Positions 6,340 to 47,991 of a stretch of DNA of 64,000 bases are shown here, one piece after another. Within the stretch, counting starts at the first letter, position 1, and every line of letters begins with the position of its first letter. The stretch lies in assembly GCA_934277945.1 (NCBI GenBank), contig CAKQWA010000005.1, positions 7,022 to 71,021 of the forward strand, written 5' to 3'. Both the position numbers and the translations under genes were made by a program. The stretch is from an uncultured Alphaproteobacteria bacterium. GTDB taxonomy: Bacteria > Pseudomonadota > Alphaproteobacteria > CAAGCB01 > CAG-977. The notes under the pieces were generated by a model, which was not told the origin of the DNA, did not search any database, and saw nothing but the letters and a program-made list of their open reading frames with translations.

Positions 6340-6437
6340 AAATACCGAAAGTCTTTACACTGCTGATTTGTTGTTTCATTCCGAAAAAGAAAAACAGGCG
6401 GCATTTTAGAAACAAATACATGAAAAAATGAACAAAA

Positions 6438-6461
6438 GGGGAGATGATATAACATCTCCCC
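6438..6461. terminator. bidirectional hairpin between the host locus and the tail-fibre chaperone gene
   Basis: GGGGAGATG-atataa-CATCTCCCC. The stronger T-tract is on the minus strand (TTTTGTTCATTTTTT). It lies 14 nt downstream of the minus-strand stop at 6475. Confidence 0.6.
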
Positions 6462-6474
6462 ACGTTTTTACAAA

Positions 6475-6798
6475 TTACGGCTTTTCCGGAAATATCACAT
6501 TATATGGGAAATCCTCCTGTTCCGGCAAATCGCGCAGTTTTTGCCGATATGTTTTAAAAGCGTCTTTTCGTTCCGGCGTTATCGGATAATCGCACAAAAC
6601 GTACTTGTCGCTTTCGCTTAAAAGTCTGTTACGTTCGACTCTGACCGCCTTTGCGACTTCACCGTCCGATGCCGGTATTGCGTTTCGGATAGCAAAAACA
6701 CTTCCGTCCCGAACGATTATCGCGTGATTATTGTTACACCAGACCGCCGCTTCGGGCGGATAGTCGTTTTCAAAAATTTGTCCGATATGATAAGTCAT
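6475..6798 (-). CDS. tail fibre assembly chaperone-like protein
   Basis: Start taken at MTYHIGQ, internal to ORF 6475-6855. C-terminus ERNRLLSESDKYVLCDYPIT...YRQKLRDLPEQEDFPYNVIFPEKP matches the phage tail assembly chaperone pattern. It sits immediately downstream of a fibre gene. Confidence 0.6.
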   Translation of the reverse strand: MTYHIGQIFENDYPPEAAVWCNNNHAIIVRDGSVFAIRNAIPASDGEVAKAVRVERNRLLSESDKYVLCDYPITPERKDAFKTYRQKLRDLPEQEDFPYNVIFPEKP

Positions 6799-6809
6799 TT
6801 TTCTTCTCC

Positions 6810-7670
6810 TTAATAGCCGCAAGCGGACCATGTAAAATACTGTGCGTTTCCGCAACTGTTTCCTAATCTGATATAAGAAACCGAAGCTTGAATGGCGTAA
6901 GATTCCGCTTGTCCGCTTGTTCCCAAAAGCGAATGGGAAAACGAGATCATATAATTTTTATCGGCAAACGGCTTTAACAGAGTAATGTCGGCGTACGTCG
7001 AAGCTTGTATCTGGATACGACCTCCCTGCTCAATCCAGCCGTCAGACCAAACCCGATACCACTCCGTGCCGCTGTGATACGTTTCCGTCACATACGGTTT
7101 GGTGCAATTCGACAGATCTTTATTCGCTTTCGTCCCCAGAATCGCCGCCGCGTGCGTTTCCGCCGATGCCGCATTTGTCGCCGATGTTTGCGCTTGCACC
7201 GCTTTCTCTCTTGCCGTATCCGCGTTTGCCCGCACTGAAACCGCCGCCGCCGCGCAATCCGACACGGCTTTGCGAATGCTCGGAATCAGGCTTGCCGCGT
7301 TCGTGTCGTCGAAGACGTCGACCGTCACCGCTCGCCCCGATTTTTCTTCCAACTGCTGCACCTGCATCGTCAACTTGTCAAAGCACCGTTCCAGCGTTTC
7401 CGCCGACAGAATTTCGTTTTCGCGGTAATCCGTTTCCTGCGTCAAGGGCACTTGCCGCATAATCACGATTTGCGCGTTGCTCGCGGGCGCCGTTTCAAAC
7501 GTCAGAGTCCCGCCCGACACCGTCCAGTCCGTGCGATCGCTCTGCACGCCGTTCAGCATCTGCCGCACGGTCAAATGCGATTTGTCCAGATACGGAAACG
7601 GAACGGTAAAATCTTTCGCCGCCCCGTTCCCCATGTAAGATATTTTATTTTGTTGACTGTTTACCGTCAT
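6810..7670 (-). CDS. tail fibre protein (T7 gp17-type N-terminal adaptor, WYRVWSDGWIEQGG-type C-terminal tip)
   Basis: Start taken at MTVNSQQ, with GAGGAAAAA upstream. YMGNGAAKDFTVPFPYL...IVIMRQVPLTQETDY resembles the podovirus fibre N-domain. It lies outside the 153-bp repeats. Confidence 0.7.
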   Translation of the reverse strand: MTVNSQQNKISYMGNGAAKDFTVPFPYLDKSHLTVRQMLNGVQSDRTDWTVSGGTLTFETAPASNAQIVIMRQVPLTQETDYRENEILSAETLERCFDKLTMQVQQLEEKSGRAVTVDVFDDTNAASLIPSIRKAVSDCAAAAVSVRANADTAREKAVQAQTSATNAASAETHAAAILGTKANKDLSNCTKPYVTETYHSGTEWYRVWSDGWIEQGGRIQIQASTYADITLLKPFADKNYMISFSHSLLGTSGQAESYAIQASVSYIRLGNSCGNAQYFTWSACGY

Positions 7671-7681
7671 TTTTTCCTCAT

Positions 7682-7704
7682 AAAAAAAGCGGGATTTCTC
7701 CCGC
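7682..7704 (-). terminator. intrinsic terminator immediately upstream of the fibre gene RBS
   Basis: Minus strand reads GCGGGA-GAAA-TCCCGC followed by T7. The T-tract ends about 3 nt before the GAGG RBS of 6810-7670. Confidence 0.55.
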
Positions 7705-7879
7705 CGTTCACAATCAACGCATTTTTCCAAATATATTACATTTTGTGATTATTTTTAAAAAAGTCAAGCAAAATCATCCGCCGCGCGCATTTCTCCCCTG
7801 CTTTGTTTACGCGTTCGACGGCAATGCAACAGAATAATACACAATGAAAGGTAGCATGCATACACCTCAAAACTGCGAA

Positions 7880-8032
7880 ACGGCAAAAGTCTGCGAACTG
7901 GCGGAAAATCAAGGGTTTGCGGGCAAAAAAGACGGTTTTTCAAGTGGTGCGGAAAATGGAGCGTTCGAACTCGAAAAACTCAATAAAAACAAAGGCTTGC
8001 AAGAAAATGCAAGCCTTTGTCCACGTTGGCTG
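7880..8032. repeat. left copy of the 153-bp direct repeat (attL-like)
   Basis: Hand alignment to 47771-47923 (offset 39891) gives 149/153 identity. The four mismatches are at 7942, 7944, 7945 and 7947. It contains a copy of the tRNA terminator hairpin (7991-8018). Confidence 0.9.
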
Positions 8033-8124
8033 CGCAAACTGGACAATCTTCGAAATCATCAGAATGAAATCAAAGCCTTGCAAAGTCGCGCCGAAACATT
8101 GCTTATTTTTATGCAATCAGCCGC

Positions 8125-8343
8125 TTAATCGCACATTTTATCGTACACAACATTATTCGCGTTCACCTGCCGGATCGTTTCGGGCGTGTCGCGCGCGTAA
8201 TCGGGGAAAACTGGTTTGTACACGTCACAAAAATCACCGCTTAAAACGGTCGTGCAGCCGTTCAACAACAGCAGGATCGTTAAGAGTGCCGCGAATACGG
8301 CAAATCTGATCCATCGTTTTTTTCTTTTTCTCAAAGTTTGCAT
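8125..8343 (-). CDS. o-spanin-like lipoprotein (Rz1-like)
   Basis: 72 aa. Basic N-terminus, hydrophobic stretch and a Cys (LLLLNGC). Partly overlaps the upstream TM-protein gene in another frame, at the end of the lysis cassette. Confidence 0.55.
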   Translation of the reverse strand: MQTLRKRKKRWIRFAVFAALLTILLLLNGCTTVLSGDFCDVYKPVFPDYARDTPETIRQVNANNVVYDKMCD

Positions 8344-8434
8344 TTCTTTCCGTCCTTTTTCCCAAAAAATAAGATAAAACCCCGATAGCCCCCATTAAAA
8401 GCGCGATCAGACCGAATAAGATTAAGTCGTTCAT
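8234..8434 (-). CDS. i-spanin-like N-terminally anchored protein (Rz-like, short)
   Basis: Start taken at MNDLILFGLIALLMGAIGVLSYF, with RBS AGAGGTGG. Single TM segment followed by a charged tail. Overlaps the o-spanin candidate by 110 nt. Confidence 0.45.
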   Translation of the reverse strand: MNDLILFGLIALLMGAIGVLSYFLGKRTERNANFEKKKKTMDQICRIRGTLNDPAVVERLHDRFKR

Positions 8435-8628
8435 TCTACCACCTCTTGCTTTTTGCTGACGTTGGTAAGATGTTTGACGGCTTTCTTTTCGGAAAAGCAC
8501 ACCCGTTCGGCGTATTCGGATTTTTTGCCGATGTTAAAGGCGGAAACGGGACGAAAATACCCCATCACGCGCGTCCAAACTTCGCAGGGTTGCCGTTCGA
8601 CGTCGGTTAGTTCAATTTCTTGTTCCAT
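8431..8628 (-). CDS. small protein resembling the NrdD C-terminal glycyl-radical segment
   Basis: 65 aa with RBS GGAGA. WTRVMGYFRPVSAFNIGKKSEYAERV resembles the R-x-x-G-Y...N-x-G-K...E...R-V end of class III RNR. This is from recalled consensus and was not searched. Confidence 0.4.
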   Translation of the reverse strand: MEQEIELTDVERQPCEVWTRVMGYFRPVSAFNIGKKSEYAERVCFSEKKAVKHLTNVSKKQEVVE

Positions 8629-8711
8629 TGCGTTTTCTCCAACGTGTAAGAATTACTTACAGGTTCGCGAAAAGCGGCGGGCGTTGAAACCCGCCGTTTT
8701 TCTTTCAATCG

Positions 8712-9035
8712 TCAAGTATCGCTTGACTGTTCATCTTTGCTCTTGTCCGCGCTCTTGAACTTGTCCAGCACGCCGGCGGCTTTGGGGTTGCGGCGTCGGA
8801 ACAAGGCGACGTAAGGCTTCCAGTCGATTGCCGTTCCCTCAACGATGTCGTACAGCCGCTTGACGAACGCGTCGTCCTTTTCGGTTTTTGTCAGTTTGAC
8901 CGCCCAGAACGCTGCGGGCTTGATGATCGTCAACACGGCGATAATCGTTCCCAGCATCGACAGTGCGACGGCGACCCAAGCGATGTCGGTGTGCGCCAAA
9001 GCGAACAGCAGAATTGAATTGATGATATTTTCCAT
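8712..9035 (-). CDS. holin-like membrane protein
   Basis: 107 aa with two hydrophobic segments (ILLFALAHTDIAWVAVALSMLGTIIAVLTII) and a charged C-terminus. Directly downstream of the endolysin gene, with RBS AAGGAG. Confidence 0.5.
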   Translation of the reverse strand: MENIINSILLFALAHTDIAWVAVALSMLGTIIAVLTIIKPAAFWAVKLTKTEKDDAFVKRLYDIVEGTAIDWKPYVALFRRRNPKAAGVLDKFKSADKSKDEQSSDT

Positions 9036-9038
9036 ATG

Positions 9039-9461
9039 CTACTCCTTTTGCATAAACAGTTTCATTTCTTCGATGCGGCGGCGGAGCAACCCCGCCGAGC
9101 CGCGCCCGTTCACAAAGCACCACCGGGGGAATTGACCGGCGGCGGCGACGTAATCGCCTTGAAAAAGCAATCGCCGCATTTGCGAATTTTCAAATTGCCC
9201 GCGCCCGATGTTGAAGACGAGCGAGCACAGCGCGTCATGCTGATTTTCCGTCAGAAGCAACCCTTTCAGGCTTTTTTCCGCTTCTTTCAAATCTGAAATC
9301 AGGAAGTTTTCCGCGGCTTCGGGCGTGATGACTCCCGTTTTTTTGCCCGCCGACAAAACGTGACCGTAGCCGACCGTGCATTTGCCTGCCGGACATACAT
9401 ACGGCACGCAGGACAACCCCTCAAAATTTTTGACGAATTCAAGCAATCCTTTGGAAATCAT
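9039..9461 (-). CDS. endolysin, GH24 lysozyme family
   Basis: FEGLSCVPYVCPAGKCTVGYGH...ALCSLVFNIG, the T4/lambda-type lysozyme signature. 140 aa. Confidence 0.85.
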   Translation of the reverse strand: MISKGLLEFVKNFEGLSCVPYVCPAGKCTVGYGHVLSAGKKTGVITPEAAENFLISDLKEAEKSLKGLLLTENQHDALCSLVFNIGRGQFENSQMRRLLFQGDYVAAAGQFPRWCFVNGRGSAGLLRRRIEEMKLFMQKE

Positions 9462-9463
9462 GC

Positions 9464-9685
9464 TTACCTCCGCCGCGGACGACCGAACTCGTCCAGTCTG
9501 TGAGTATTAGATTTGCTCCGTTGCTCAATTTCCGCGACGCGTTCCTGCAAGTGATTGTACTTTTCTTGACGTTCGCGCAGGTCATCAACCTTTGTTTCAA
9601 GCACCGACAAACGCTTGTCCAAACGCATCACGAAAAACACAAACCCGCCGAACCACGCCAGCGATTGCACGACAATGTCAGTCAT
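9464..9685 (-). CDS. membrane-anchored coiled-coil protein (possible holin or lysis regulator)
   Basis: Start taken at MTDIVVQSLAWFGGFVFFVM, overlapping the upstream stop as ATGA. One TM segment followed by a heptad-rich charged region. Confidence 0.4.
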   Translation of the reverse strand: MTDIVVQSLAWFGGFVFFVMRLDKRLSVLETKVDDLRERQEKYNHLQERVAEIEQRSKSNTHRLDEFGRPRRR

Positions 9686-16100: not shown

Positions 16101-19100
16101 CACCGCGCTTTTTGCCGTTTGTTCGTCAATGCCGACGGCTTGGGCAAACTCGGACAGGGACAAACCGTCCGCCGTGAACAAAGGCGTTCCGTTTTTACGG
16201 CGGGGAGCGTTTGCTCCGTCTCCGAATATCTCTGCGCGTGCGTCGTTGTTCAGGGCGATTTGAATGTCGGCATCTCCGATTTTTCCGTACACCAATGCGG
16301 AAACGGCTAAAAAGCGTTTGTCGCTCTGCATTTGAATTAACAGTCTGCGTCGGACTTCACGTTCGCGCCGCGCCCGTTCCTTTTCGTTTTCTTCGTACAG
16401 CACGGCGGCTTTCGCTTTGGCGTAATCGTCGGAACTGTCCGCAAAAACGTCGCGGAACATATCCATCAGCGCGTTTTTGTCGCCTTCGCCGATTTCCGCG
16501 TAATCATCCAACGCGGACGTAAAGACGGATTCACGGGCGAATTGTTCAATCTCCGCATCGGTCGCAAACAGTCGGCTGAATACCGTCCGCACTTCGTCCG
16601 AAATATCGACGTTCAGTTCATCGGCGTTTTTATAAACGGATTTCAACCACCGCTTGAACGCTTGGAAAATGCGCCCCAAACGCGCAACGGGCGGTTTTTG
16701 CGCCGTCATGAAATACTTTTCCATCGCACGCGCGAAACATTCTTGCTTGGCGACTTCTTCGGCGTGCGCCGCCGTCGTCAATCCGTCTGCTTCAACCGTG
16801 CCGTTTTTCAAAACAAGGGCAATCGTGCCGTCGTTTTGATTGCGAATGTCGTACTGCTTGTGCGCCTGCGACGACAGCCACGCTTCAACCGTCGCCGCAT
16901 CGGACTTTAACGCCGCCGACGCGCTGTCCAATCCGGCGAAGTATCGCAGCATGGTCAGCCAATAATGACCGCTTTCGTGGATCAAAGTTGAAAAATCCGC
17001 TCCCGAAAACAGCGTAATGGCGTTTCGGGCGGGGTCGTACATACCGCGCGGAGCATATTGTTCGCCGACGGTTTGGAAATAATCTGCGGACGGATTGAAT
17101 TTTGCGATTTCTTTTGCTATAATCAGTTTTGAACTCGTTGGCGTGCCGTTAATAGCGGTCTTGAACACGTCGGCGAGTTTTTCGCTTAATCCGACTTCAT
17201 GCAGATAAAATCCCGTTCTGTTCTTGCTTTTTTGCAAAACGGCTTCGCAGACATATTTTTCCCCGTTGATTGTAACGGGGGCGGCGATAACTGTTCTGTC
17301 AAAACCGCTTTGCTCGAAATTCCGTTCTTCAAGAGCGACGACACCGTTTTTGATGACTTCGGGGACGGCGGCGAACGCGGCGGCTTTCAAACGTCCCATT
17401 CCATGCGCAACGCTGTCTTTGACGGCACGCTTGTCCATCAACACTTTGCCGATGCCGTCGCGATTTACGAAACCGCCATACTCTTTGGCAAAAAATTCAG
17501 TGACCTTGTCAGTTAAAGGAACGTCGTCCTTTTGGAATTCCGCTCCGGTCAATTCTTTTACGGGTTTTTCCGTAAAGACGAAATCAACGGCGTTTTTCAA
17601 ATTTTCGGGCAGGGCGGCGTAAATTTTGCTGTCATCTATTTCCTTGATGCCTGTTTGATAGAACTTTTGAATGACTTTCACGTCTTTGTCGTTGAAAATG
17701 ACAAAGCATCGTCCATCAGCCAATCCCTCGTAAGTAATTCCTTTAACGCCATATTTTGCCAACAGTTCGGACGCCGCTTTTTGCGTTCCGTCAAGGCTTG
17801 ACATAATATCGCTGTATAAAGCCGCTCCCGTCGGATTTCCGTTAACATAAGCGATTTTCATTTCTTCGGTTAAATCTTTGCCCATATCTCTGAACAATTT
17901 CCGCAACGCCTTTTTGACAAAAGCCGACTGCTTGCTGAACGGTTTTTGCTCGTCGAGTAAATACGGGTTTTCGGGAATATCGACCTCGTGGACTTGTCCA
18001 GCGGTATCGCGGGCATCTGTAATTCTTCCGCTTTTTATGATTTCAGCTGCTTCGACAAGTCGCGCCACAACGCGTTCAAAGTCGGCAACATCGTTTTTGT
18101 CTCCGTTCTTCTTTGCTTCAATCAGCCGTTTTACGTTTGTCTTTCGTAAAGAACCCAGATATTCGGCGGCTTCCTTGTCCGTTCTGAACCATTTGCTGTA
18201 AATAGCGATTCCTTCCGCGCTGTCGTTGTCAATCAGCTCGCCGTCAATATAAATCGACGACGCTTTTCTCTGAACGATTTTATCGTCGAAAGCGATTTGT
18301 CCCGTTACAAACGAACGCCTGTATTGTTCAGCCACGTCTTTGTTCAACGCGTAGTACAGTCCCCAGCCATGCGCTTGATTGCCTTCGCCGCTTCCGATGG
18401 CTTCAATGCTGGGTTGGTCGTAATCGACGCGCGAACCGGCGTAGGCGGACTGATAATAAATATTCTGCGTTTCTTTGCTAAAAGAACCGATATTTTCAAC
18501 GGATTTTATCTGTTCAGGCTCAAAGACAACATACGTTCCGCGTGTTCCAAAAATGCCGTCGCTTCCTTCTTTTAAGTCTAAGTCACTCCAAGACGGATTG
18601 CTTATTTTTAAATAAACGGGCATTATTTTTTTGCCGTAATTCTGCGCTGTATAGTAATCTTTTGTGAAATAAAAGCCTTTTCCATAGTAAAGTTTCTTAT
18701 GGTTCTTGCTTATTTTTTCTTCATCAAACGCGTCGAATGTTTTTTTTGTTCCGTGATAAACAATAAGCGGTCTTCCTTGCTCATCGACAACCTTACTGTC
18801 GCCGAACCATTCATAAAACGCCCGCAAGCCTTCTTCTGTTTTGGCGATACGTTGACCATCGCTGTTATGCGTTTTTCGCAATTCGCCGTTGATTTCTATC
18901 TCATCATCGGTAAATGTATTGACAAAATCAATCAGATCACCGATATTTATATCAGAACCGCCGGAAGTTTTGGATTCGTCCATTACGAAATTGCCTAAGG
19001 CATTTACGGCGGTCTTTTTTTTGCCTACGCTCAGAGCATAAGCCGCTAAATCTTTTCCCCCATTTTTCTCAATTTCAATATCTGTAAGCTCTTTTCGTCC

Positions 19101-22100
19101 TTGATTTAATTCTTTAACTGTTATTTTTACAATAAACGCCTCTGTATTCGATTTATCGTCTTTTTTAGATAAAATAACGTTCGCATATCTCCTTATTTTA
19201 TTTTTAGAGCCGTGCTTAGAATCATTGTGTGTTTTGATAAGAAAAGCACTATCAAATATATTTGCAATGTTTGCGATACATTCTTTACCTAAAATGCCTC
19301 CTATATTTCCGCCTTTTCTGCTTCTTGCTTTTTCAAACATCTCGCCGATATTTTTGTTTGATAAAGCCGCCGTTTCACCCGTCCGGCTATTTCTTAAAAC
19401 TCGTTTTTCGTTTTCATTCTTTCCGTCTTTTCTTTCATCAATGGCGTCAATAACGTCTTTCTTAGAAATATCTCCGCTTGATTCCTTTCCAGAAAATTTT
19501 CTATTGATTACAACCGGCTCAACAATCTCATTTTCCCTGCCGCTTAATTCTGGATTGATGTCTTTCCGTTCAAAAGCCAAGCGATCCGCATCAATTTTGC
19601 TGATCTTTGCGGAAAGTTCGCCGAAACTCTTTTGATAACCCGATTGATACAGTTTTTCGTCCCGCGCCAAAGCGTCTTGTCCGGCGATGGCGTCAAAGAT
19701 TTCAAACTTCGTCTTTTGGGGGGCGGCAAACAGGGAATCCTGCAACATATCACCTTCGGTGCGCGCCAGACGGATATAATCGTCTATTTTGTTTTTGAAC
19801 GCCAAAGCCGACGGCTGCGCCTCAAACAACAGGGACAGGTATTGTACCGCCGGCGCAATGGGTTCTTCCAGCATATCCAGTTGCTTGATGTAGACGGAAA
19901 TCGGCTTTTTGGCGGCGACGGCACGCTTTAAAACGTAAACCGCGCCGTTCAAATCTCCGATGACGGAGTACGCCGCGTCAATTCTTCCGGCGGAAATGTC
20001 GTTTTCAAATGATAGAACGGCGGGGGCTGATTTGCTGATGCCGCTTGCGATTTTTCGGTTTTGATTGTAGCCGCTCGCGTCCTGCGTCAACAGCGTGTCC
20101 AGCAGTTTTTTATCGGGAACGATCATTGCCGAAAGCGCGTTTTCAATACGCTCAATGCCGTCTTTGGTGATTTGTCCGTTTTGCATTAAAGCGTTGCGTT
20201 CCGAACCGGGAATGACCGTTTCAAAAAATCCTTTGACAAAGTTTCTATTCGCCGCATCGGACAATTCCGCCGTGCCGTCAAGAGCTTCCAGCAGATTTTT
20301 CGTGATTTTTGCGCAATCTTTCAAGGCGGTTTCGGAAACGGAATATGTCATCGTTCCCGTCGTGTTCGCGTCATCAACCAGCGCGCTCAACTGTTCGTCC
20401 GACAAATCGGAAGTCAAACGGCGGACAAGTACGGGTTCTTTAAAACCGCCGATGTCAAAGCCTTCGCGCGTCAAATAATCTTTATAAATTTGCGCTTTGC
20501 CGGCATTGCGGTAGACATTCCCGATTGTCATGGCACGCCCGTTGCCCGCCAAAACATACCCGTCGCGCGTCAAAACGGGCGCGCCCTCGGTCGCCGTCGG
20601 GGAACGTCCGACGCGTTCGGGTGTAAAATTCGCCGTCATGTTTTGAATTTGCTCGCGGCTCGCCACGTCGGAACGGTCGCGCGGTTGCAGATACGCGGGA
20701 AAATCGGCGTTGACCGCGCCGTCTGGCGAATTGCTCGCCTTGACATCGGACAGTTCCGCGATTTCATAGGAAACGCCGATGCGTCCGCCGCCGACTACGA
20801 TATAATCGCCGCCGTCTTGCTGAATATCCGCCAAAGCCTTTTCGTTTGCGCTTCGCCGCCCGTCGCTTTTCTGGGTGCGTTCCGCCGCTTTTGCGGGGAC
20901 GTTCGCCGTATTGTCGGCTTTCGCATCTCCCTCCGTCAGCACTTCAAGGAAATCTTCGGGCGTCGCTTTCTCCAAATTCAAGCGTTTGTTCGTGATGGCT
21001 TGCGCCGTTTTCGCCAACGCCTGCGGGTTGTCCGCCAACGATTTGATGTTTTCTTTCAGCACGCGCGCCAACGCGTTCACGTCTTTGTTCGCGTATTTTT
21101 GGATTTCCGAAATCAACCCGTCCGCCGCGTTCGCTCGGGCTTCTTCAACCACGCGCCGCGCCAAATCGCGCATTGTCGCATTTTCACCGACGGCACCCGT
21201 CCAGTCCGTCGATACAGTCAGGTTCATACGCCGTAAAACTTCGCTGACAGGCAGTTTTGTTTCCTGCGAAAACCGAACGGCGGACGCGGCGTACAGTTCC
21301 GCTTGATACCGTTTTTGTTCGGCGGGGACGTTCTGCGCGCCGGCGACGGCGTTTTCAAAAACACGCAAAGCCGTTTCAAAATCCGTATTTCGCTGTTCTT
21401 TCAGTTTTGCGGCGGTTTCGACGATTTCTTTGTTGCGGTTAATGATTGCCCGCGCTTCATTCGCGCTCATTGCGCCGTCGGACAACCTGATGCGCCCGTT
21501 GATTTCTTTGAACACGTCAATATAAGGAGCAATGCGGCTCAACAGTTTGTCTTCGGAAATGTTGACCGTTCCGCCCGTTTCTTTGGCTCGTTCTATTTTT
21601 TCCTTCAAATCGCCCAGCACGCCGTTTTGTTCCAGCGCGGCGCGGTTGTTTGCCACCGCTTCGGATTGCAGGAACGCTTCCGCGTCTTCTACCGTCAGGA
21701 CGTTCTGCTCCAATGCCGTTCCTTTTGTCGCCTGATACAAAAAACCGTCATATTTCGCGGGCTTTTCTTTTATGTCTGGCAGTCCTGCCGCTTTTTCGGC
21801 AACGACGGATCGGGCGTTTTCGGCATAAAGCGCGCCGACCATGTCGTCGCTTTTCGCCAGCCGCGCCAAAGCGTTGTTTCGGACGCGTTCGCGATTGCGG
21901 ACACCTGCGCCGACAGCCGCTCCGCCGACACCCAGCAATATCGCGCCTTTTGCGCCGCCCGCCGCGGCTTGCTTCACGTTGTCCCAAATCTCCGACGGCG
22001 TTTCAAGGTCGAAATACCCGACGCCTTTTTCTTCCGCCTTTCTTTTATATCGGTTTCCGATAAAACTTTGCGCCGCTTGTTGCAGGGCTTCTTCCGTTCC

Positions 22101-23255
22101 TTCGGACGCGATTTCGACCAGAAAATCGACTCCCAGTTCTTTCGCCAATGTTTTGACGGTTTTTTCTTTCAGCGCATTTGTGATTTTATTTTTCAAGAGG
22201 GCTTTTTTGGCGACGGTTGTCACACCCGTCAATTTCAGCATTGCCGTAGACGCCAGACTTTCAATGCCGGCGGAAACAAAACCGTACAAATAGGACGCGA
22301 AACGAATGTCGTCTTCGGGGATTTCGTTTCCTTTCGCATCTTTGACGGTTGCAAGTTCGACGAACATAGACCCAGTTTCGTTTTTGAACGAACGCCGGAA
22401 ACCTTCCAGCATACCCGCGCCGACGGCGACGGGGGCGACAGCCGCGCCCGTTCCGGCGGAAAAGTACGTCGCCGCGCTTCCGATTACCGCGCCCGCCGTT
22501 TGCGGCGCCATGACTTTCAGGGAATACCACGCACTTTCCAAACCTGTCGTCAAAATGCTTTCGGCAAAATTGTCGTCAGGCGGGATTATCGTGTCCGCCG
22601 CGGCTTTGAACATCGCCGCGCGTTTGCGTTTTTCTTCAAAGGGAATATCTCCGTTGCGCATTAAATCAAAAGCGGCTTCGTTCGTTTCATACGTTTCCCG
22701 TCCGCGTCTGAACGACGTCGCGGCTTTGTTCGCAATGCGCCCGATTGCGTTCGCGGGCATATCAGCCTGTCCGTAATAGTGCAAGTTGTAATTCAGATTA
22801 TACAAATCCTTTGCGCTCATTGACGGAACGGACTTGATCAGATTGTCGCGTTCGGTCGTGTCCATTTTCTGCAAGGCGGAATTGTTTTGAAAGAAATAGG
22901 CTTCCTGTTTTTTTTGTTCCGCGGCTTCATAAACGTCGTAATTCGCGTGAATTTGGTCAATGACGCGCCCGTCGGTAATTCCCATGCGGGACGCCAAAGC
23001 GACGGCGTCATCGCGTTTGGCGGGGTCAAGCCCCAGCGCACCGGATTTTCGGAAGGACAGACCGATGGCGTCTTTCGCCGCTTGCGTCCGTTCTGCGACA
23101 ACGGCGTTTGCGGCGCGTTCCGCCATGGCTTGCGTTTCGTCTTCCTGCGAAACGGCAAACGGGCGGGGCTGAGCCGCTTCTTTGGCGGCTTGCTCGATCA
23201 GGGTTTCGCGCCGCGCTTCTTCCGCATCACGAAAAATTGAAAAATTATCAGTCAT
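13101..23255 (-). CDS. giant internal virion / ejection protein with multiple effector-like domains (polyvalent protein, gp16 position)
   Basis: 3384 aa counted from MTDNFSIF (ATG 23255, overlapping the upstream stop). Contains HESGH (16965-16979); VYHGT, GFYFT and VVFEPE (18747-18761, 18664-18677, 18511-18530); LQPRDRS (20664-20690); and Gly/Ala-rich and hydrophobic segments at both ends. Confidence 0.8.
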   Translation of the reverse strand: MTDNFSIFRDAEEARRETLIEQAAKEAAQPRPFAVSQEDETQAMAERAANAVVAERTQAAKDAIGLSFRKSGALGLDPAKRDDAVALASRMGITDGRVIDQIHANYDVYEAAEQKKQEAYFFQNNSALQKMDTTERDNLIKSVPSMSAKDLYNLNYNLHYYGQADMPANAIGRIANKAATSFRRGRETYETNEAAFDLMRNGDIPFEEKRKRAAMFKAAADTIIPPDDNFAESILTTGLESAWYSLKVMAPQTAGAVIGSAATYFSAGTGAAVAPVAVGAGMLEGFRRSFKNETGSMFVELATVKDAKGNEIPEDDIRFASYLYGFVSAGIESLASTAMLKLTGVTTVAKKALLKNKITNALKEKTVKTLAKELGVDFLVEIASEGTEEALQQAAQSFIGNRYKRKAEEKGVGYFDLETPSEIWDNVKQAAAGGAKGAILLGVGGAAVGAGVRNRERVRNNALARLAKSDDMVGALYAENARSVVAEKAAGLPDIKEKPAKYDGFLYQATKGTALEQNVLTVEDAEAFLQSEAVANNRAALEQNGVLGDLKEKIERAKETGGTVNISEDKLLSRIAPYIDVFKEINGRIRLSDGAMSANEARAIINRNKEIVETAAKLKEQRNTDFETALRVFENAVAGAQNVPAEQKRYQAELYAASAVRFSQETKLPVSEVLRRMNLTVSTDWTGAVGENATMRDLARRVVEEARANAADGLISEIQKYANKDVNALARVLKENIKSLADNPQALAKTAQAITNKRLNLEKATPEDFLEVLTEGDAKADNTANVPAKAAERTQKSDGRRSANEKALADIQQDGGDYIVVGGGRIGVSYEIAELSDVKASNSPDGAVNADFPAYLQPRDRSDVASREQIQNMTANFTPERVGRSPTATEGAPVLTRDGYVLAGNGRAMTIGNVYRNAGKAQIYKDYLTREGFDIGGFKEPVLVRRLTSDLSDEQLSALVDDANTTGTMTYSVSETALKDCAKITKNLLEALDGTAELSDAANRNFVKGFFETVIPGSERNALMQNGQITKDGIERIENALSAMIVPDKKLLDTLLTQDASGYNQNRKIASGISKSAPAVLSFENDISAGRIDAAYSVIGDLNGAVYVLKRAVAAKKPISVYIKQLDMLEEPIAPAVQYLSLLFEAQPSALAFKNKIDDYIRLARTEGDMLQDSLFAAPQKTKFEIFDAIAGQDALARDEKLYQSGYQKSFGELSAKISKIDADRLAFERKDINPELSGRENEIVEPVVINRKFSGKESSGDISKKDVIDAIDERKDGKNENEKRVLRNSRTGETAALSNKNIGEMFEKARSRKGGNIGGILGKECIANIANIFDSAFLIKTHNDSKHGSKNKIRRYANVILSKKDDKSNTEAFIVKITVKELNQGRKELTDIEIEKNGGKDLAAYALSVGKKKTAVNALGNFVMDESKTSGGSDINIGDLIDFVNTFTDDEIEINGELRKTHNSDGQRIAKTEEGLRAFYEWFGDSKVVDEQGRPLIVYHGTKKTFDAFDEEKISKNHKKLYYGKGFYFTKDYYTAQNYGKKIMPVYLKISNPSWSDLDLKEGSDGIFGTRGTYVVFEPEQIKSVENIGSFSKETQNIYYQSAYAGSRVDYDQPSIEAIGSGEGNQAHGWGLYYALNKDVAEQYRRSFVTGQIAFDDKIVQRKASSIYIDGELIDNDSAEGIAIYSKWFRTDKEAAEYLGSLRKTNVKRLIEAKKNGDKNDVADFERVVARLVEAAEIIKSGRITDARDTAGQVHEVDIPENPYLLDEQKPFSKQSAFVKKALRKLFRDMGKDLTEEMKIAYVNGNPTGAALYSDIMSSLDGTQKAASELLAKYGVKGITYEGLADGRCFVIFNDKDVKVIQKFYQTGIKEIDDSKIYAALPENLKNAVDFVFTEKPVKELTGAEFQKDDVPLTDKVTEFFAKEYGGFVNRDGIGKVLMDKRAVKDSVAHGMGRLKAAAFAAVPEVIKNGVVALEERNFEQSGFDRTVIAAPVTINGEKYVCEAVLQKSKNRTGFYLHEVGLSEKLADVFKTAINGTPTSSKLIIAKEIAKFNPSADYFQTVGEQYAPRGMYDPARNAITLFSGADFSTLIHESGHYWLTMLRYFAGLDSASAALKSDAATVEAWLSSQAHKQYDIRNQNDGTIALVLKNGTVEADGLTTAAHAEEVAKQECFARAMEKYFMTAQKPPVARLGRIFQAFKRWLKSVYKNADELNVDISDEVRTVFSRLFATDAEIEQFARESVFTSALDDYAEIGEGDKNALMDMFRDVFADSSDDYAKAKAAVLYEENEKERARREREVRRRLLIQMQSDKRFLAVSALVYGKIGDADIQIALNNDARAEIFGDGANAPRRKNGTPLFTADGLSLSEFAQAVGIDEQTAKSAVAHIPEFVKRFEETVSAEVDRTAGKQKSVAELENEARDAMVTDKTLGFLLLELSVLQNKATGGRDTKADMMMLMKEYSEGKPIEELRGKLAAKFNETSLSEVLRFDATEQIGKMIVGRLNPESFFKDAQRAGEAVLRRVAMGKNDEAVKAKIEQIKNFYLYKEARDVQKRYESTEKRLRQIGNQLTNNDVEQSHQDAARALLIRYGLARASGKAEQERVIRFLAGKARETAIIEDEHNIGLADWIRDANARGEEIPLPESLLLNIYGAKYSALSVSDFFTLADTVKSIVHNGREVKALEIEGKRIERDAAIGEMVAEVGKQRLIKKNPHPQNKKLSYEAGRLLRSLDGSLTTMNGLCDRLDNGNTNGAFHTYLNRPLSQAEHVENELRERYILKFGDLVKNKLPKESRKAFRKEVAGSGAVFNRLNDFTREELICIGLNMGAVENLDRLKSQTCNNFTNEMLDYVKDTLTTEEWDFIQSVWDLLDGMFPMLAEHHKNMSGLDVEKVVAAPFTAHGKEYKGGYYPLAYASDSVSKSKKQESVTNALLEAGAARPFTNKGYTKSRMESVNKKGGLKFDFTVIANHLATTIHDVAYRRTLRDLWATFNDPRMIEAFTDNMGEEYHAVILELLRGLGNKAYREAKDIDGWERLFRFTRQQTTMIGLCYRISTILTQPVGFLNGVAKMQEEHIKMHGTKTGAYWAAVGAKKVLDKTERERAFAMSAELRARQGSIDFSTGMRLKELRGENGMLAEAEAVGYKAMGMLDYWTATALWIGAYHQALDMKMSGDDAVYFADKVMTTSQGAGNYKDAAPIQRKGEAYKALTTFYSFFSGLYQMSFAFAHDAADAVRTRDKALLMNVLARFLTMYAISTVLNSIIGCDLPDEDESWLHWLLMRIWGYQLSTVPVARDLFSGYSSKGASPTMRLLDNVKNGIAGALDSDKDAGKRTKAVLKAFSSVVPHLPVGGQFGDSIGYLVDKGMGNIGSQSWLEVLYGLYKGREFKQ

Positions 23256-25029
23256 AATATACTTCCTTTGTGCCGTCGTGGTGAACGATGATGTTTTTAC
23301 GTCTGAAATTCGTGTTTGCCGATCTGCTTTCTTCGTCCAGCCGCTTCTGATTGATTTCGTCCGCCATTTTTTTGAATAAATCGACCATGTCGTCTTTACT
23401 TTCCAGCAAGGCGACGCCCGCGTATCTTTCGACAAAGCGTTTGCGGTCTTTTGCGCTTAAACGTTTGAAGCCGCCGAACGTCATACTGTCCAGCATCGAC
23501 GAATAGCGTTCGCGTCTGTCGGCGGGAATCGTGTCGTAATCGACCTTGATGTCGTCGGTTTTTCCCTGCACGAACGCTGCTTGCGGGATAAACGTGTCGT
23601 CGCCGTACCAATGCGCCTCTTTGACGTGTTCGTCCGTGATTTTGTTTAAAATGTCCATGCGCTCGTCGTTGGTCAAAAACTGTTTTTTGGTTGTCATCAT
23701 GGTTTGCGTCGCCATTGATCGGAACAGCGTCAACGCTTTCAATTTCTGCCGCGCCTGTTCGTCGGGTTTGGCTTTTTTGTCGACCAGCGCCCCGTACAGA
23801 ACTTCTTTGTACTCGGCGGGAAGGTTGTACGCGCTGTCTTTGATTTCCCCCGTTCGTTGCGATTTGACGACGTAACGTCCGTCTTTTCCGATTTCGACGC
23901 TGTCTTTGTACGCGACTGCGATGCTGTCCTGCATGGCTTTCAGATATGCCAACTGTTCGTCGTCCAACTCTCCCAAATGTTCGTACAACTCAACGTTTAA
24001 AAACGCCGTCGGATCGGTGAAAGCCATATCGTTCAGTTCGACCGCGACTTGCGGATTTGTCGCAATCATCGTGCCGGCGTTCAAATGCTTGATACGCTCG
24101 GCGATGCCCGCCTGTATGCGTTCGTTGCCGACGGACGCGATAAACTCTTCGCTGGGGACGTTCCCGTTTGCGATATTGCCCAAAGCCGTTTCGACCAAGG
24201 CGTGCTGTGCGGCTTTTTCGTTTGCCGCCGCCCGTCTGTCGTAATTGATTTTTTCGCGGGCGAACAACGCCTTGTAGCCGTCCAATGCCGTCTGGTCGAT
24301 TTTTTCGCCTTCAAATTCTCCGGTTGCCAGAATTTGTCCCGCCGCGTCCAAATTCGTGTAAATCAAATGCTTTATGCCGTTGTCGCGACACGCCGCCTTG
24401 AATTTTTCGCGGTAAATCGCTGCGTCCTGCGCGGTGATGGCTTTGTCGTCAAGGGCTTTTTGTATCATTTCTTCGCTTTGCCGCGTGATTTCCTCGCGCA
24501 CCTTTCGGGCGGAAGAGGGAAAGGCGGACGCGTTGTTCGCCAATGTCCTTTCAATGCCTTTGCGCGTTTCGCCGCTTGTCCAGCGCGCTTTTGAAAGGTT
24601 GTATTCCAAAACGGCTTCGCGGTTGATTTGTTCGGCGCGCTTTGACAAACGCGCCTTGCGGTCGTCGTCCATGTTTTTGGCATACGCGTCCCACAGGTTC
24701 GCCGTTGTTTCCGTGAAATCCGATCCGTTTTTGACGCTGCGCCCGTCGCGGAGTTTGTAACTGCCTTTTTCGGCGTAGTCGTTTGACAGTTCACGGGCTT
24801 GCAAAGCCTCTCTGACTTCCAGTCTGTAATCGCTTTCCGCCGCTGCGTCGTCAACTTGCCGCTGTTTTTCCTGCGCACGCACCACAATGCCCGTGACGTC
24901 TTTGATGGCGGCAAGGGTTTGCTGCGCCAGATTGTTCAACGGATCGTCGAACCGCGCCGTCTGCACGCCGCCTTTCATCGCGGGATTTGCGCTTGTTCTG
25001 CCCGTATATGGCTTAAAACTTCCGGTCAT
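23248..25029 (-). CDS. internal virion protein (gp15 position)
   Basis: 593 aa, charged and helical, between the gp14-like and giant genes. Assigned by gene order only. Confidence 0.45.
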   Translation of the reverse strand: MTGSFKPYTGRTSANPAMKGGVQTARFDDPLNNLAQQTLAAIKDVTGIVVRAQEKQRQVDDAAAESDYRLEVREALQARELSNDYAEKGSYKLRDGRSVKNGSDFTETTANLWDAYAKNMDDDRKARLSKRAEQINREAVLEYNLSKARWTSGETRKGIERTLANNASAFPSSARKVREEITRQSEEMIQKALDDKAITAQDAAIYREKFKAACRDNGIKHLIYTNLDAAGQILATGEFEGEKIDQTALDGYKALFAREKINYDRRAAANEKAAQHALVETALGNIANGNVPSEEFIASVGNERIQAGIAERIKHLNAGTMIATNPQVAVELNDMAFTDPTAFLNVELYEHLGELDDEQLAYLKAMQDSIAVAYKDSVEIGKDGRYVVKSQRTGEIKDSAYNLPAEYKEVLYGALVDKKAKPDEQARQKLKALTLFRSMATQTMMTTKKQFLTNDERMDILNKITDEHVKEAHWYGDDTFIPQAAFVQGKTDDIKVDYDTIPADRRERYSSMLDSMTFGGFKRLSAKDRKRFVERYAGVALLESKDDMVDLFKKMADEINQKRLDEESRSANTNFRRKNIIVHHDGTKEVYYD

Positions 25030-36519: not shown

Positions 36520-37475
36520 AGCGGCGTACTCCCCGAATACGACCCGCTTTTCACTCCGAACGACACGACCGTTCCGGCACGCACGGCGTTCTGTTTGTCG
36601 CGTTCCCATGTCCGCACAGCCGCTTTCCAGTCTTTCATCGGGTTTTTTCCGACAAACCAGCCTTTCGCCGTGTAAAAGTCCACGAACCGCTCCGCATCGA
36701 CCGAATAGCCTTGTTCGGCTATGTAGGCTTGCGCTTCCTCAACGGTCGGAGGAACAAAAACGCCGTTTTTGGCTTTGGGGGTACAAACACTTGTGTTTGT
36801 GGGGGTATATGTATTTTTATTTTTTTCTTCTTCTGGGGGTGCAGGGGGTATCTTTTCTTTTTTTCTTTTTGTGAACGTGTTCGCATCGCTTCGCATACAT
36901 TCGCATTTCGTTTTGTGCGTTTGCATATTTTCGCATTCGTCCGTATCCGTTCGCATTTCGTTTTGTGCGTTCGCATCTTTTGGCATACGGTCGCATTTTT
37001 CGATATGCGTTTCTATGCGTTCGCATACGTTCGCATCGTCTTTTATGCAATCGCATTCGTCCGTATCCGTTCGCATTTCGTTTTGTGCGTTCGCATCTTT
37101 TGGCATACGGTCGCATTTTTCGATATGCGTTTCTATGCGTTCGCATACGTTCGCATCGTCTTTTATGCAATCGCATTGAAGCGCATCGCTTCGCATTTCG
37201 TTTTGTGCGGGCGCGTCCGCGTTTTTGCTTTCGCATCGCTCCGCATTCGACCAGCGGGCAGCCGCCGATCCGCGCGCTTTTTCCGTGCGTTCGCAAAATG
37301 CCGAATACTCTTTTTCCAGTTGCGAACTGAAAAAATCCCACATCGGAACGTTTTTGACTTCGTAATCGGGGTATCCGGCAATCCCTTTTAAAACTTCCGC
37401 CGCCTGTTCACTGGTAAGCGTCGCAAAAAGCGGCAGCCAATCCCGATAGACGCGCGGTGCAAACTGTTTAGCCAT
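36516..37475 (-). CDS. replication initiator / replisome organiser containing the origin iterons
   Basis: Start taken at MAKQFAP (ATG 37475, RBS AAAGGA). The central part encodes repeated NAQNEMRTDTDECDCIKDDANVCERIETHIEKCDRMPKDA. C-terminus is PPTVEEAQAYIAEQGYSVDAERFVDFYTAKGWFVGKNPMKDWKAAVRTW. Confidence 0.6.
   Translation of the reverse strand: MAKQFAPRVYRDWLPLFATLTSEQAAEVLKGIAGYPDYEVKNVPMWDFFSSQLEKEYSAFCERTEKARGSAAARWSNAERCESKNADAPAQNEMRSDALQCDCIKDDANVCERIETHIEKCDRMPKDANAQNEMRTDTDECDCIKDDANVCERIETHIEKCDRMPKDANAQNEMRTDTDECENMQTHKTKCECMRSDANTFTKRKKEKIPPAPPEEEKNKNTYTPTNTSVCTPKAKNGVFVPPTVEEAQAYIAEQGYSVDAERFVDFYTAKGWFVGKNPMKDWKAAVRTWERDKQNAVRAGTVVSFGVKSGSYSGSTPL
36881..37236. repeat. origin-like iteron field: 18 exact TCGCAT in 10-bp register, including a perfect 2 x 120-bp tandem repeat (36931-37050 and 37051-37170)
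   Basis: TCGCAT starts at 36881, 36891, 36901, 36931, 36951, 36971, 36991, 37021, 37031, 37051, 37071, 37091, 37111, 37141, 37151, 37171, 37191 and 37231, all congruent modulo 10. Confidence 0.85.
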
Positions 37476-46211: not shown

Positions 46212-46428
46212 TATGAATCTAATCGCACACATAAACACAGAAGGACTTCCGCCGCAAATAGCGGACGAAGATACTTTCCGTCTTGTGTGCGATTATCTGG
46301 ACGTTTTGTGCGAACTGTACGAGGAAGTCATTGAAGAAGGCTGTTATCCTGACCCGTGTGTCAACGAAAGAGCAGGAAGAGGGACACTCTCTCGCCGCCC
46401 AAAATACACGCCTTATCGAATACTGTAA
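46212..46428 (+). CDS. small acidic ORF overlapping the integrase start (possible recombination directionality factor; uncertain)
   Basis: 71 aa. Overlaps the preferred int start (TTG 46331) by about 98 nt in another frame. Confidence 0.25.
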
Positions 46429-47950
46429 GCGCAAAAACCTTGATGTCGTTAAATCCTTTGAGATTATCGAATCGTCCACGCGCGGCGGACGCAAAAAATT
46501 CCGCGAAGTCATCGACTTTTGCCTTTCTCAAAATGAAACCGTCGCGCTGATAGCCGACGCCGTGGATCGCGTCCAGCGTTCTTTCAAAGATTCCGTTTTG
46601 CTGGACGAACTCGTCCGCAAAGAAAAAATCGAACTTCATTTTTACCGCGAAAACATGGTCATCGGCGCGGGCGCGAGCGCGTCGGACATTATGCGCTGGG
46701 ATTTTTCCGTTATGGGTGCAAAATCCTACGTCCTGCAACTTTCCGAAAACGTCAAACGCTCCCTCGACTACAAACTGCGGAACGGCGAACGTGCGGGGGT
46801 TGCTCCGGTCGGATATGTCAATTTCCGAAACGACGACGGCAAAAACTCCATTCGCCCCGACGAAGTGGACGCCCCGAAAGTTCAGCGCATTTTCAATCTG
46901 TATGCATTGGGCGGCACTTCCGCCCGCGAATTGACGCGCGTTGCCGACAAAATCGGCTTGCGGTCGCGCATGGGACGCAAACTGCAAGTGTCCGGCATTC
47001 TGTCAATCTTGCGCAATCCGTTCTATTACGGAGAAATGCTGTCCAAGGGAAAACTACACGCGCACGTTTACCAGCCCCTTATCAGCAAAGACACATTCGA
47101 CGCTTGCCAATGCGTTCTCGAACATTCCAAATGCAAACCGTTCAAGCACGGGGAAAAGCCTTTTGCATACCGTGGCTTAATTCATTGCGCAAACACGGAT
47201 AAAATCTGCCCGATAGAAATCAAAAAACAGCAGTTTTATTATGTCGTCTGTTTTGCCGCCGATAAACAGCGGCGCGTTTATATTCCGCTTGAAGACATCG
47301 ACGATCAGATTTGCTACATCTTGAACTCAATCGAAATTCCCACCGAACTCATTGAACAAATCCGCACCTATATGGCATCATCCAAAAAGCAGGAAATCGC
47401 GTACAGAAACGCGGAAACGGGGCGGCTGAAACAGGAATTGACCCGCGTTGAAAATCGTATCGACGCGCTGTTTAACCTACGCCTTGACGGTGAAATTGAC
47501 CAAGAAACGTACAACGATAAAAACAGCCGTCTGCAACTGGAACGCCACCGCCTTGAAGAGCGTATCCAAGCACACAGGAAAGCGGACAATTCGTTTAACA
47601 GAACCGTCTTAAATCTTATGGAAATCGCAAAATCCGCCGCAACAATTTTTAAAACGAGCCGCAACGCCGAAAAGAAACGGCTTTTGCTGTCGTTCCTGTT
47701 TGACCGTTTGGAGTTGGACGAGGGCAGGATCGGTTATAAATTGCGCTATCCGTTCAATGAATTTCAGAATACGGCAAAAGTCTGCGAACTGGCGGAAAAT
47801 CAAGGGTTTGCGGGCAAAAAAGACGGTTTTTCGACGGATGCGGAAAATGGAGCGTTCGAACTCGAAAAACTCAATAAAAACAAAGGCTTGCAAGAAAATG
47901 CAAGCCTTTGTCCACGTTGGCTGGGGAACCTGGATTCGAACCAAGACTAA
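46331..47950 (+). CDS. int: large serine recombinase (integrase)
   Basis: KKAVILTRVSTKEQ catalytic-Ser motif, a recombinase domain (RNPFYYGEM), Cys-rich region and coiled coil. Start set at TTG 46331 after GAGGAAG; the track ORF begins at 46283. The ORF runs through the repeat and stops inside tRNA-Gln. Confidence 0.85.
   Translation: MKKAVILTRVSTKEQEEGHSLAAQNTRLIEYCKRKNLDVVKSFEIIESSTRGGRKKFREVIDFCLSQNETVALIADAVDRVQRSFKDSVLLDELVRKEKIELHFYRENMVIGAGASASDIMRWDFSVMGAKSYVLQLSENVKRSLDYKLRNGERAGVAPVGYVNFRNDDGKNSIRPDEVDAPKVQRIFNLYALGGTSARELTRVADKIGLRSRMGRKLQVSGILSILRNPFYYGEMLSKGKLHAHVYQPLISKDTFDACQCVLEHSKCKPFKHGEKPFAYRGLIHCANTDKICPIEIKKQQFYYVVCFAADKQRRVYIPLEDIDDQICYILNSIEIPTELIEQIRTYMASSKKQEIAYRNAETGRLKQELTRVENRIDALFNLRLDGEIDQETYNDKNSRLQLERHRLEERIQAHRKADNSFNRTVLNLMEIAKSAATIFKTSRNAEKKRLLLSFLFDRLELDEGRIGYKLRYPFNEFQNTAKVCELAENQGFAGKKDGFSTDAENGAFELEKLNKNKGLQENASLCPRWLGNLDSNQD
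47771..47923. repeat. right copy of the 153-bp direct repeat (attR-like)
   Basis: See 7880-8032. The last 6 nt (TGGCTG) are the complement of the tRNA-Gln 3' end CAGCCA. Confidence 0.9.
47875..47909 (-). terminator. intrinsic terminator of tRNA-Gln
   Basis: Minus strand reads AAAGGCTTGCA-ttttct-TGCAAGCCTTT-G-TTTTT. It begins 8 nt after the tRNA 3' end. Confidence 0.7.
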
Positions 47951-47991
47951 CGGAGTCAGAGTCCGCTGTTCTACCATTAAACTATTCCCCA
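47918..47991 (-). tRNA. tRNA-Gln: tRNA-Gln (anticodon CUG), 74 nt with encoded CCA
   Basis: Hand-folded. Acceptor TGGGGAA/TTCCCCA, D-arm GTTT/GAAC, anticodon arm GCGGA-CTCTGAC-TCCGT, T-arm CTTGG-TTCGAAT-CCAGG, discriminator G, then CCA. Confidence 0.92.

Follow-up and report, generated by a model that had tools for sequence, protein, structure and literature searches.

A large serine recombinase gene that reads through its own crossover core into a tRNA-Gln gene, with a C-terminus set by integration and a possible ssrA-like tag on the phage form

The window analysed here, a stretch of 64,000 nucleotides (nt) from contig CAKQWA010000005.1 of an uncultured Alphaproteobacteria bacterium (assembly GCA_934277945.1), contains a prophage whose integrase gene (int) encodes a large serine recombinase (LSR) and ends inside a tRNA-Gln gene on the opposite strand. 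The right junction of the prophage, at which the attachment site attR overlaps both genes, comprises the following features, in coordinates of the window.

46331..47950 (+): int in its prophage (attR) form, 539 aa; the LSR open reading frame (ORF) crosses the attachment (att) core and stops inside tRNA-Gln
46331..47764 (+): conserved LSR body, aa 1-478, with catalytic domain (R9/S11), recombinase domain and zinc-ribbon domain with coiled coil
47771..47917 (+): P arm, which is also the variable linker of the integrase protein (Int), ~50 aa and predicted to be disordered; right copy of a 153-nt repeat
47873..47913 (-): predicted intrinsic-terminator hairpin and U-run, 4 nt past the tRNA-Gln 3' end, antisense within the int linker
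47918..47923: crossover core TGGCTG, right copy; antisense of the tRNA 3' end CAGCCA, and Trp-Leu codons of Int
47918..47991 (-): tRNA-Gln(CTG), found with ARAGORN; its acceptor/T arm is the B' half-site
47924..47950 (+): B'-encoded read-through tail GNLDSNQD and stop, antisense of the tRNA acceptor/T arm

The int frame starts at TTG 46331, homologues starting alike (MKKAVILTRVS), and, as a preliminary description of the stretch made from its letters had reported, it runs uninterrupted across the repeat as far as TAA 47948-47950 inside tRNA-Gln, giving the protein end ...CPRWL-GNLDSNQD. Pfam recognizes a Resolvase domain (PF00239, aa 4-152, E 7.5e-13) and a Recombinase domain (PF07508, aa 180-263, E 4.9e-11), the nucleophile motif R9/S11 can be read straight from the Int sequence (within LTRVST), and a match to the PHROG 95 integrase family spans aa 1-468. 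Conservation had been expected to end at about aa 478 (KLRYPFNEF), in good agreement with the PHROG coverage and with the alignment of LSR homologues, in which invariant columns reach P474/F475 and none lie beyond. The AlphaFold2 model of a homologue 96% identical to the window Int (mean predicted local distance difference test score, pLDDT, 78.5) has long helices at residues 338-442 (the zinc-ribbon/coiled-coil region), a disordered linker at 485-524 (pLDDT 24-42) and a helical tail at 528-561 (pLDDT ~80), and its best Foldseek matches are full-length serine integrases (9dxh, 9iu2 (Bxb1), 9rah (PhiC31) and 4kis; E 1e-18 to 1e-10). By its domains, fold and core length, the window enzyme is a bona fide LSR.

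The P arm is repeated at the left junction of the prophage. A direct repeat (7880-8043 and 47771-47934; 96% identity, spacing 39,891 nt) contains only four clustered mismatches in its first 153 nt (7880-8032 and 47771-47923; mismatches at 7942, 7944, 7945 and 7947), and a diagnostic pattern for it has two matches in the window and none in 100 shuffles, so that the 153-nt repeat cannot be attributed to chance. The left junction contains three features that correspond to parts of int.

7880..8026 (+): left copy of the P arm, linker-coding 'SSG' variant, placed where the host B arm is expected
8027..8032: core TGGCTG, left copy, at the left junction
8033..8128 (+): P' arm, encoding the phage-form Int tail RKLDNLRNHQNEIKALQSRAETLLIFMQSAA and its stop; fused to int in the related sequences P0131, P0146 and P0148, and matched by the hidden Markov model of the tail

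As previously described, the ORF at 7844-8128 reads the left repeat copy in the int frame (...CPRWL-RKLDNLRNHQNEIKALQSRAETLLIFMQSAA, with TAA at 8126-8128), and TTAA 8125-8128 provides the stops of both this ORF and a convergent spanin ORF. The coordinates given earlier for this junction hold, except that the P' arm starts at 8033 rather than 8034, the core occupying 8027-8032 and 47918-47923.

The position of the crossover could be narrowed with two related prophages for which both ends were recovered (attR in L001 with attL in L027; attR in L014 with attL in L195). In IMGVR_UViG_3300045988_171639, whose Int is 86% identical to that of the window, attR reads ...TTCAGGT TGGCTG GGGAACCTGGAC..., and attL consists of the host terminator hairpin followed by ...CTCAAGG TGGCTG TGCAAACTGGACAATC...; in a prophage of a different lineage (..._139708), attR reads ...TTCAGTG TGGCTG GGGTGGCAGG... 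and attL reads ...CTTGATTC TGGCTG CCCTCGCTGCAC.... The block of identity between attL and attR is exactly TGGCTG in both pairs, with mismatches on either side, and the same six nucleotides, the antisense of the CAGCCA that ends tRNA-Gln, form the sole invariant block across eight aligned attP, attL and attR sites. The P' arms of both pairs encode, in frame, ...LLLFIKSAA or ...YVREKLAA before the stop. As judged from these aligned sequences, the crossover lies in TGGCTG, inside the int reading frame, and a 6-bp core fits a serine integrase. The earlier proposal of a 153-bp att repeat is therefore correct in that the repeat exists and crosses int, but not in its extent as a core: the canonical attL sites of L027 and L195, which have only TGGCTG in common, rule out the 153-nt repeat in that role, and it is instead a lineage-specific copy of the P arm, placed at the left junction beside a stray tail-fibre module. 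The L001/L027 pair likewise does not allow a GT crossover upstream of the core. The tRNA-Gln gene, which attB overlaps, is preserved whole at attR of the window as well as of L006, L012-L014 and L021-L023.

A phage-form Int of 562 aa ending in Ala-Ala had been predicted for the excised phage, and proteins of this very length occur in relatives. The 90% clusters that contain the closest 539-aa homologues also hold 562-aa members, which end in ...CPRWLCKLDNLRNHQNEIKSLKSRAETLLIFMQSAA (P0131) or ...LLLFIKSAA (P0146 and P0148); these close relatives derive from metagenome assemblies and have Int proteins 87-96% identical to that of the window. The P0146 contig (ERZ27298383 k141_953985; 36 kb) carries at least 10 kb of phage genes on either side of int, in the order early genes (S24 repressor, RecT, SSB), int, a convergent 66-aa gene, an NrdD-like gene, an endolysin gene and very large structural genes, and P0131 lies on contigs of 3-3.7 kb in three samples with the same gene order. 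The P0131 and P0146 contigs, which are of the attP form, contain no tRNA, and int is joined in them to spanin-like, NrdD-like and lysis genes as from window position 8033 on; the NrdD-like ORF follows int in the gene tables of L189-L192. Nucleotide identity between the attP-form contigs and the window is 94.5% on the int side and 86.6% on the P' side (7880-9048). More distant attP-form viral contigs found with tblastn (L002, L003, L008-L010) have the same synteny, with int ending in HLAA, AIAA or KVAA and overlapping the end of the gene homologous to the window ORF 8431-8628. Because the P' tail is fused to int in contigs of relatives, the fusion is observed DNA and not a reconstruction only. 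One further attP-form relative (L007, 7600-7788) keeps the helix motif described below and then diverges (…QLEFVLIAHDARPYF…) without an AA stop, and may be a rearranged or decaying copy.

The pattern of C-termini extends throughout the family. A close set was formed from the 120 best homologues, 35 of which have phage-form tails. A stop conserved ahead of the repeat, which the preliminary description had raised as a point that would tell against its proposal, is not seen in these relatives, as 119 of the 120 read to the att core or beyond and the exception is a single truncated protein. The prophage forms among the 120 end in antisense readings of the tRNA (WLxxxDSNxD; GWGGWIRTNE...; ...FEPTN...), their total length varying from 487 to 666 aa according to where the tRNA antisense stops. 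Two integrases of the same lineage at another tRNA-Gln gene (P0121, 666 aa; P0145, 555 aa) have a much longer read-through (...WLGRLDSNQRMTESKSVALPLGYAPT...), from which it follows that the prophage-form tail is fixed wholly by the target. The phage-form tails end predominantly in AA (26 of 35: LAA 15, FAA 6, IAA 3, VAA 2), with LVA or LVV in four more, and the motif RxEIxxLKxQL is present in all 35, the remaining five with still other ends included. In close relatives the tail has a pN/pS (the ratio of nonsynonymous to synonymous polymorphism) of 0.58 in the real frame versus 1.1-1.35 in the other two, values that come from small numbers and non-independent pairs.

At greater distances, a profile search of 1.84 billion representatives returned 1,925 relatives at E < 1e-30. 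The distant set consists of the 130 full-length proteins among the best 150, each representing a 50% cluster, and was sorted by simple regular expressions into classes that are accordingly approximate. Approximately 88 of the 130 are of the prophage type, with a Trp codon (TGG, which is CCA read in antisense) and, after it, either tRNA antisense or an early stop. Termini in AA were found in 6 of 14 clear phage-type tails versus 0 of 88 prophage-type tails. Depending on the lineage, the core is translated in any of three frames (TGG CTG as WL; xTG GCT Gxx as xAx; GGC TGx as GC or GW), and P' encodes a helix and AA whichever core frame is used. The comparisons show that there are two Int isoforms determined by the state of the DNA, and that the phage-form tail is under selection while the prophage tail is arbitrary. 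The prophage is a member of a large LSR clade whose site of recombination is the extreme 3' end of a tRNA gene.

The left junction of the window differs from what these relatives would lead one to expect. Beyond the arms and core listed above, it includes or adjoins the following features.

8125..8343 (-): Rz-like spanin gene (PHROG 1275), convergent with the tail
8431..8628 (-): 65-aa ORF resembling the NrdD C-terminus (Pfam PF13597), which follows int in attP-form contigs (synteny marker)
6475..7670 (-): tail fibre (6810-7670) and fibre assembly chaperone (6475-6798), identified with Pfam and PHROG; outside the Int-defined prophage
6438..6466: hairpin and CCACGT, resembling a native tRNA-Gln 3' flank; conceivably the original B arm

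The left P-arm copy differs at one position from its counterpart in the P0001-type phage (L021, L022) and at four positions from that of the resident int. With a phage P arm in this place, the left junction resembles attP and is not a canonical attL, its structure being that of an attP lacking the int body; canonical attL sites in relatives have the host terminator where the window has the phage P arm. The order leftward is the P-arm copy, an AT-rich promoter-like stretch, a T7-type tail fibre gene, the chaperone gene, the hairpin with CCACGT, and host polysaccharide genes. The fibre outside the prophage is only 31% identical to the prophage's own fibre. The same arrangement of left junction and fibre is present in five other metagenome samples; samples that contain this lysogen include ENA ERZ27286927, ERZ15268831, ERZ4561840, ERZ27286937 and ERZ28614901. 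Most likely, the left junction is what a deletion left of an earlier related prophage or of a tandem lysogen; a second possibility is that RecA recombination brought the present phage into such a remnant. RecA recombination across the 153-nt repeat would restore a perfect attP and the 562-aa int, with the same int-AA fusion that site-specific excision would give. The site at 6466/6467 was considered as a junction made by Int and rejected, since GGCTG is missing there and the site cannot come from the same crossover; the att sites of the relatives contradict a crossover near 6460, the possibility that the preliminary description had set against its own proposal.

A diagnostic pattern was designed that tells apart the attP, attL, attR and attB combinations of this exact phage, attP being the R-copy variant TTTTTCGACGGATG ... 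TGGCTG-CGCAAACTGGAC and the site left behind being the L-copy variant TTTTTCAAGTGGTG ... TGGCTG-GGGAACCTGG with the fibre module upstream; it had 0 matches in JGI metagenomes or IMG/VR. Among 80 loci around the neighbouring gene for tyrosyl-tRNA synthetase (TyrRS) in related gut Alphaproteobacteria, no tRNA-Gln was found at this place and synteny ended at TyrRS. The search for close phage genomes in GenBank and INPHARED gave a best Int match of 34% identity and no DNA match for 6400-9500.

The architecture amounts to the following. The excised or free phage encodes an Int of 562 aa consisting of the LSR body, the disordered linker of ~50 aa (P arm), Trp-Leu (core) and a P' tail of 31 aa, predicted to be helical and ending in Ala-Ala. 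Integration exchanges the P' arm for the tRNA and yields the 539-aa Int with GNLDSNQD as its last eight residues, and recombination between the two junctions brings the 562-aa form back; at the level of sequence, integration loses ...QSAA and gains ...SNQD. If the -AA end is recognized by proteases of the ClpXP type, the phage-form Int would be short-lived, the frequency of integration would track the protease capacity of the host, and Int made after excision would be unable to drive re-integration. Excision by an LSR requires a separate recombination directionality factor (RDF), and the RDFs of LSRs are diverse in sequence. The prophage-form Int, which would be stable because it has no tag, would be ready for RDF-dependent excision and harmless without RDF, and the state of the DNA would thus set the stability of the enzyme that alters the state of the DNA. 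Taken as a whole, this combination of the observed architecture with an ssrA-like degron that switches Int stability on integration is, in our judgement, the probable explanation.

Several observations weigh against it. The assignment of the -AA terminus as an ssrA-like degron is inferred from analogy and from the conservation of two residues; the tail of the window lineage ends in SAA, not LAA, and some phage-form tails have no AA end, about one in four of them in the close set and more than half in the distant set. Among close relatives the helix motif is conserved at least as well as AA and may be the main functional element of the tail. The hydrophobic moment of the tail helix was not above that of shuffles in a crude test, and the term 'amphipathic helix' was dropped for this reason. 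The attP-form contigs belong to relatives and not to this exact phage, and such junctions could stem from tandem lysogens rather than free phage. An exact pattern of the hypothesized native site (hairpin 6438-6461, CCACGT and TGGCTG-tRNA) retrieved no empty attB from genome or metagenome contigs, and the attP-like left junction means that excision of this prophage by Int and RDF may be impaired.

The helix could also be the point of the exchange. According to this explanation the isoforms are real, but the P' helix is a regulator of recombination that docks on the coiled coil/zinc ribbon or on the RDF, favouring integration when present and permitting excision when lost, with AA secondary. The presence of RxEIxxLKxQL in every one of the close phage-form tails, even the five with other ends, is consistent with such a role, as is the confidence with which the helix is predicted behind a long flexible linker able to reach the coiled coil, and in the tyrosine integrase of phage Mx8 a C-terminal change on integration alters activity and specificity (PMC6070905). 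At deeper divergence, however, the helix can no longer be aligned whereas the AA end recurs (in the 6 of 14 phage-type tails), and the hydrophobic moment speaks against a regulatory helix as well. We consider this explanation unlikely, though it is the main alternative; a degron and a regulatory helix are not mutually exclusive.

It might also be supposed that the read-through is incidental, the function of Int ending at about aa 478, the frame being open by chance and neither tail mattering. An unconserved linker predicted to be disordered, prophage tails made of arbitrary tRNA antisense with widely varying totals, and a tail pN/pS only mildly below 1 would all be compatible with this. The frame nevertheless stays open over linker, core and P' in 119 of 120 homologues and in three frames across the core, the position of the stop, the helix motif and the AA end are kept between lineages ~50% identical, and AA ends are confined to phage-type tails in the distant set. 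The conservation in three frames makes incidental read-through very unlikely. Also very unlikely is that the 153-nt repeat is the common core or that the left end lies at ~6460 with the fibre module in the phage (a position of the left end that would keep 8033-8128 from ever joining int in this phage): fibre and chaperone genes of phage type do lie left of the repeat, a provirus cut of ~42 kb including fibre genes is suggested by a metagenome record (by its name and length only) and CCACGT at 6461-6466 is shared with the P arm, but attL and attR of the two related prophages have only TGGCTG in common, the attP-form contigs of relatives run from int through P' to the spanin-like and NrdD-like genes with no fibre module, 6466/6467 is without GGCTG, and short cores are usual for serine integrases (PMC8092301).

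The linker may serve the tRNA gene as well as the protein. On the tRNA strand, the P arm folds into a hairpin of -28.8 kcal/mol (z -6.0), and equivalent hairpins with other stem sequences are present in L001, L006 and L014, making four lineages with the window; the canonical attL of L027 holds the displaced host terminator. A simple terminator scan of the window did not list the hairpin at 47873..47913, and the evidence for it is therefore its fold. We infer that the int linker provides, in antisense, a terminator with which the phage makes good the one lost by the tRNA. Such a role would account for a linker that is not conserved as protein but is never missing from the long forms; short Int forms (494 aa, e.g., L012) have neither the linker nor an obvious hairpin.

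Compared with known systems, the window enzyme resembles Bxb1, PhiC31, A118/LI, TP901-1 and SPbeta SprA in its domains and fold, in the few base pairs (6 here) that attP and attB have in common and in the position of int at a prophage end. To our knowledge, attP lies outside the int ORF in these canonical LSRs, unlike the present case, in which attP is inside int and attB is the 3' end of a tRNA gene. The attB sites of canonical serine integrases are mostly in protein-coding genes (PMC4383910, PMC8092301), according to the paper on Islander no serine integrase is known to have a tRNA gene as its target (PMC4383910), and the main text of the large LSR survey by Durrant et al. makes no mention of tRNA. 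The view of the preliminary description that this arrangement had not been described for an LSR agrees with our literature searches, in which, with incomplete coverage, no description was found of an LSR gene that contains attP or of an LSR whose target is the 3' end of a tRNA. As in the tyrosine-integrase islands of the Islander class, a tRNA gene is the target and sequence of the element keeps it functional; unlike in that class, the recombinase is a serine recombinase, the core overlaps only the last 6 nt of the tRNA, and the phage replaces the downstream terminator rather than a 3' segment of the tRNA, with no displaced tRNA fragment at the far end.

The closest parallels are found among tyrosine recombinases. 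In the Myxococcus phage Mx8 (IntP/IntX), attP lies within int and integration gives a recombinant int with a new 3' end (PMC6070905, PMC4383910); as here, the int ORF spans attP and the C-termini of phage and prophage Int differ, whereas Mx8 Int is a tyrosine recombinase and the window enzyme an LSR with a 6-bp core at a tRNA 3' end. A degron-like tail is not reported for Mx8 in the literature consulted. In integration-dependent immunity (BPs, Brujita and clusters G, N and P, as well as prophages of M. abscessus and Bifidobacterium), attP is inside a gene and attB in a tRNA gene (PMC9262239, PMC8092301, PMC6109161), and on integration the repressor loses a C-terminal ssrA-like -LAA or -AA tag, giving a stable prophage protein; the integrases of those mycobacteriophages themselves bear -AA tags, and the frequency of lysogeny is tied to host proteolysis (PMC9262239, PMC8092301). 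In the window, integration at a tRNA gene likewise removes, at the level of sequence, an -AA end, here a putative degron. The difference is that there the repressor is switched by a tyrosine integrase whose own tag stays, whereas here the serine int is itself switched; attP is not inside the repressor gene, the candidate repressor of the S24 peptidase type lying ~6 kb upstream in relatives. The system works like Mx8 and like integration-dependent immunity but belongs to neither.

A wider proposal, which is tentative but which we regard as quite possible, is that these proteins represent an unrecognized LSR clade with its crossover at the CCA end of the target tRNA gene and a C-terminus switched by recombination, amounting to at least ~100 clusters (50% identity) among the best 150 matches. 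Related prophages in other genomes are found at tRNA-Gln(CTG), adjoining MarC and LepA, and the TyrRS that neighbours the element in the window is 93-95% identical to those of metagenome-assembled genomes of uncultured gut Alphaproteobacteria. In L001 (7588-9000), the tRNA-Gln beside int is cut in its anticodon region by a second element with a tyrosine integrase, so that one tRNA gene is occupied in tandem by integrases of two types.

Other genes of the window and its relatives are also of interest. The ORF at 8431-8628 matches only the C-terminal glycyl-radical segment of NrdD (PF13597, positions 531-562); a gene of this kind lies beside attP throughout the phage family, with relatives in at least 80 other IMG/VR contigs, and may be a phage-borne 'spare part' glycyl-radical protein. 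A 3,444-aa ORF on the minus strand (13101-23435) may be a phage 'polyvalent' protein, to judge by its homologue in L185, which matches the Pfam families ddrB-ParB, ART-PolyVal and LPD3. In the region of the replication genes, short motifs of the CGTTCGCAT type recur in an array with periods of 40 and 120 nt (36879-37209) that has the appearance of iterons or an origin. The polysaccharide pyruvyl transferase region at 5018-6339 (+) consists of two overlapping ORFs, which may reflect a frameshift or separate genes; only 5605-6339 matches the pyruvyl transferase Pfam family, and only in its C-terminal part (profile positions 111-278).

The value of serine integrases lies in an integration that cannot be reversed without RDF, and the means by which phages avoid re-integration after excision and dose Int at infection are understood only in part. 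An integrase that rewrites its own stability or activity through the reaction it catalyses would, if true, be a new and very compact solution to directionality, and a degron removable by recombination would offer a ready-made part for state-dependent genetic circuits. Sequences of this clade taken from prophages have a junk C-terminus in place of the native tail, and mining lysogens for LSRs to be used in genome engineering may therefore yield the wrong isoform. A large clade with its crossover at the tRNA CCA end and a terminator supplied from its own coding sequence would revise the statement that serine integrases have no tRNA targets (PMC4383910). If the proposed interpretation is right, the free phage would carry an allele for a self-limiting Int, either tagged by a degron or regulated by a helix, and the integrated prophage an allele for a stable, otherwise regulated Int; the state of the DNA would feed back on the enzyme and help to enforce directionality, forming a natural state-dependent protein switch within an att site whose DNA would also bear, antisense to the int coding sequence, a replacement terminator for the tRNA.

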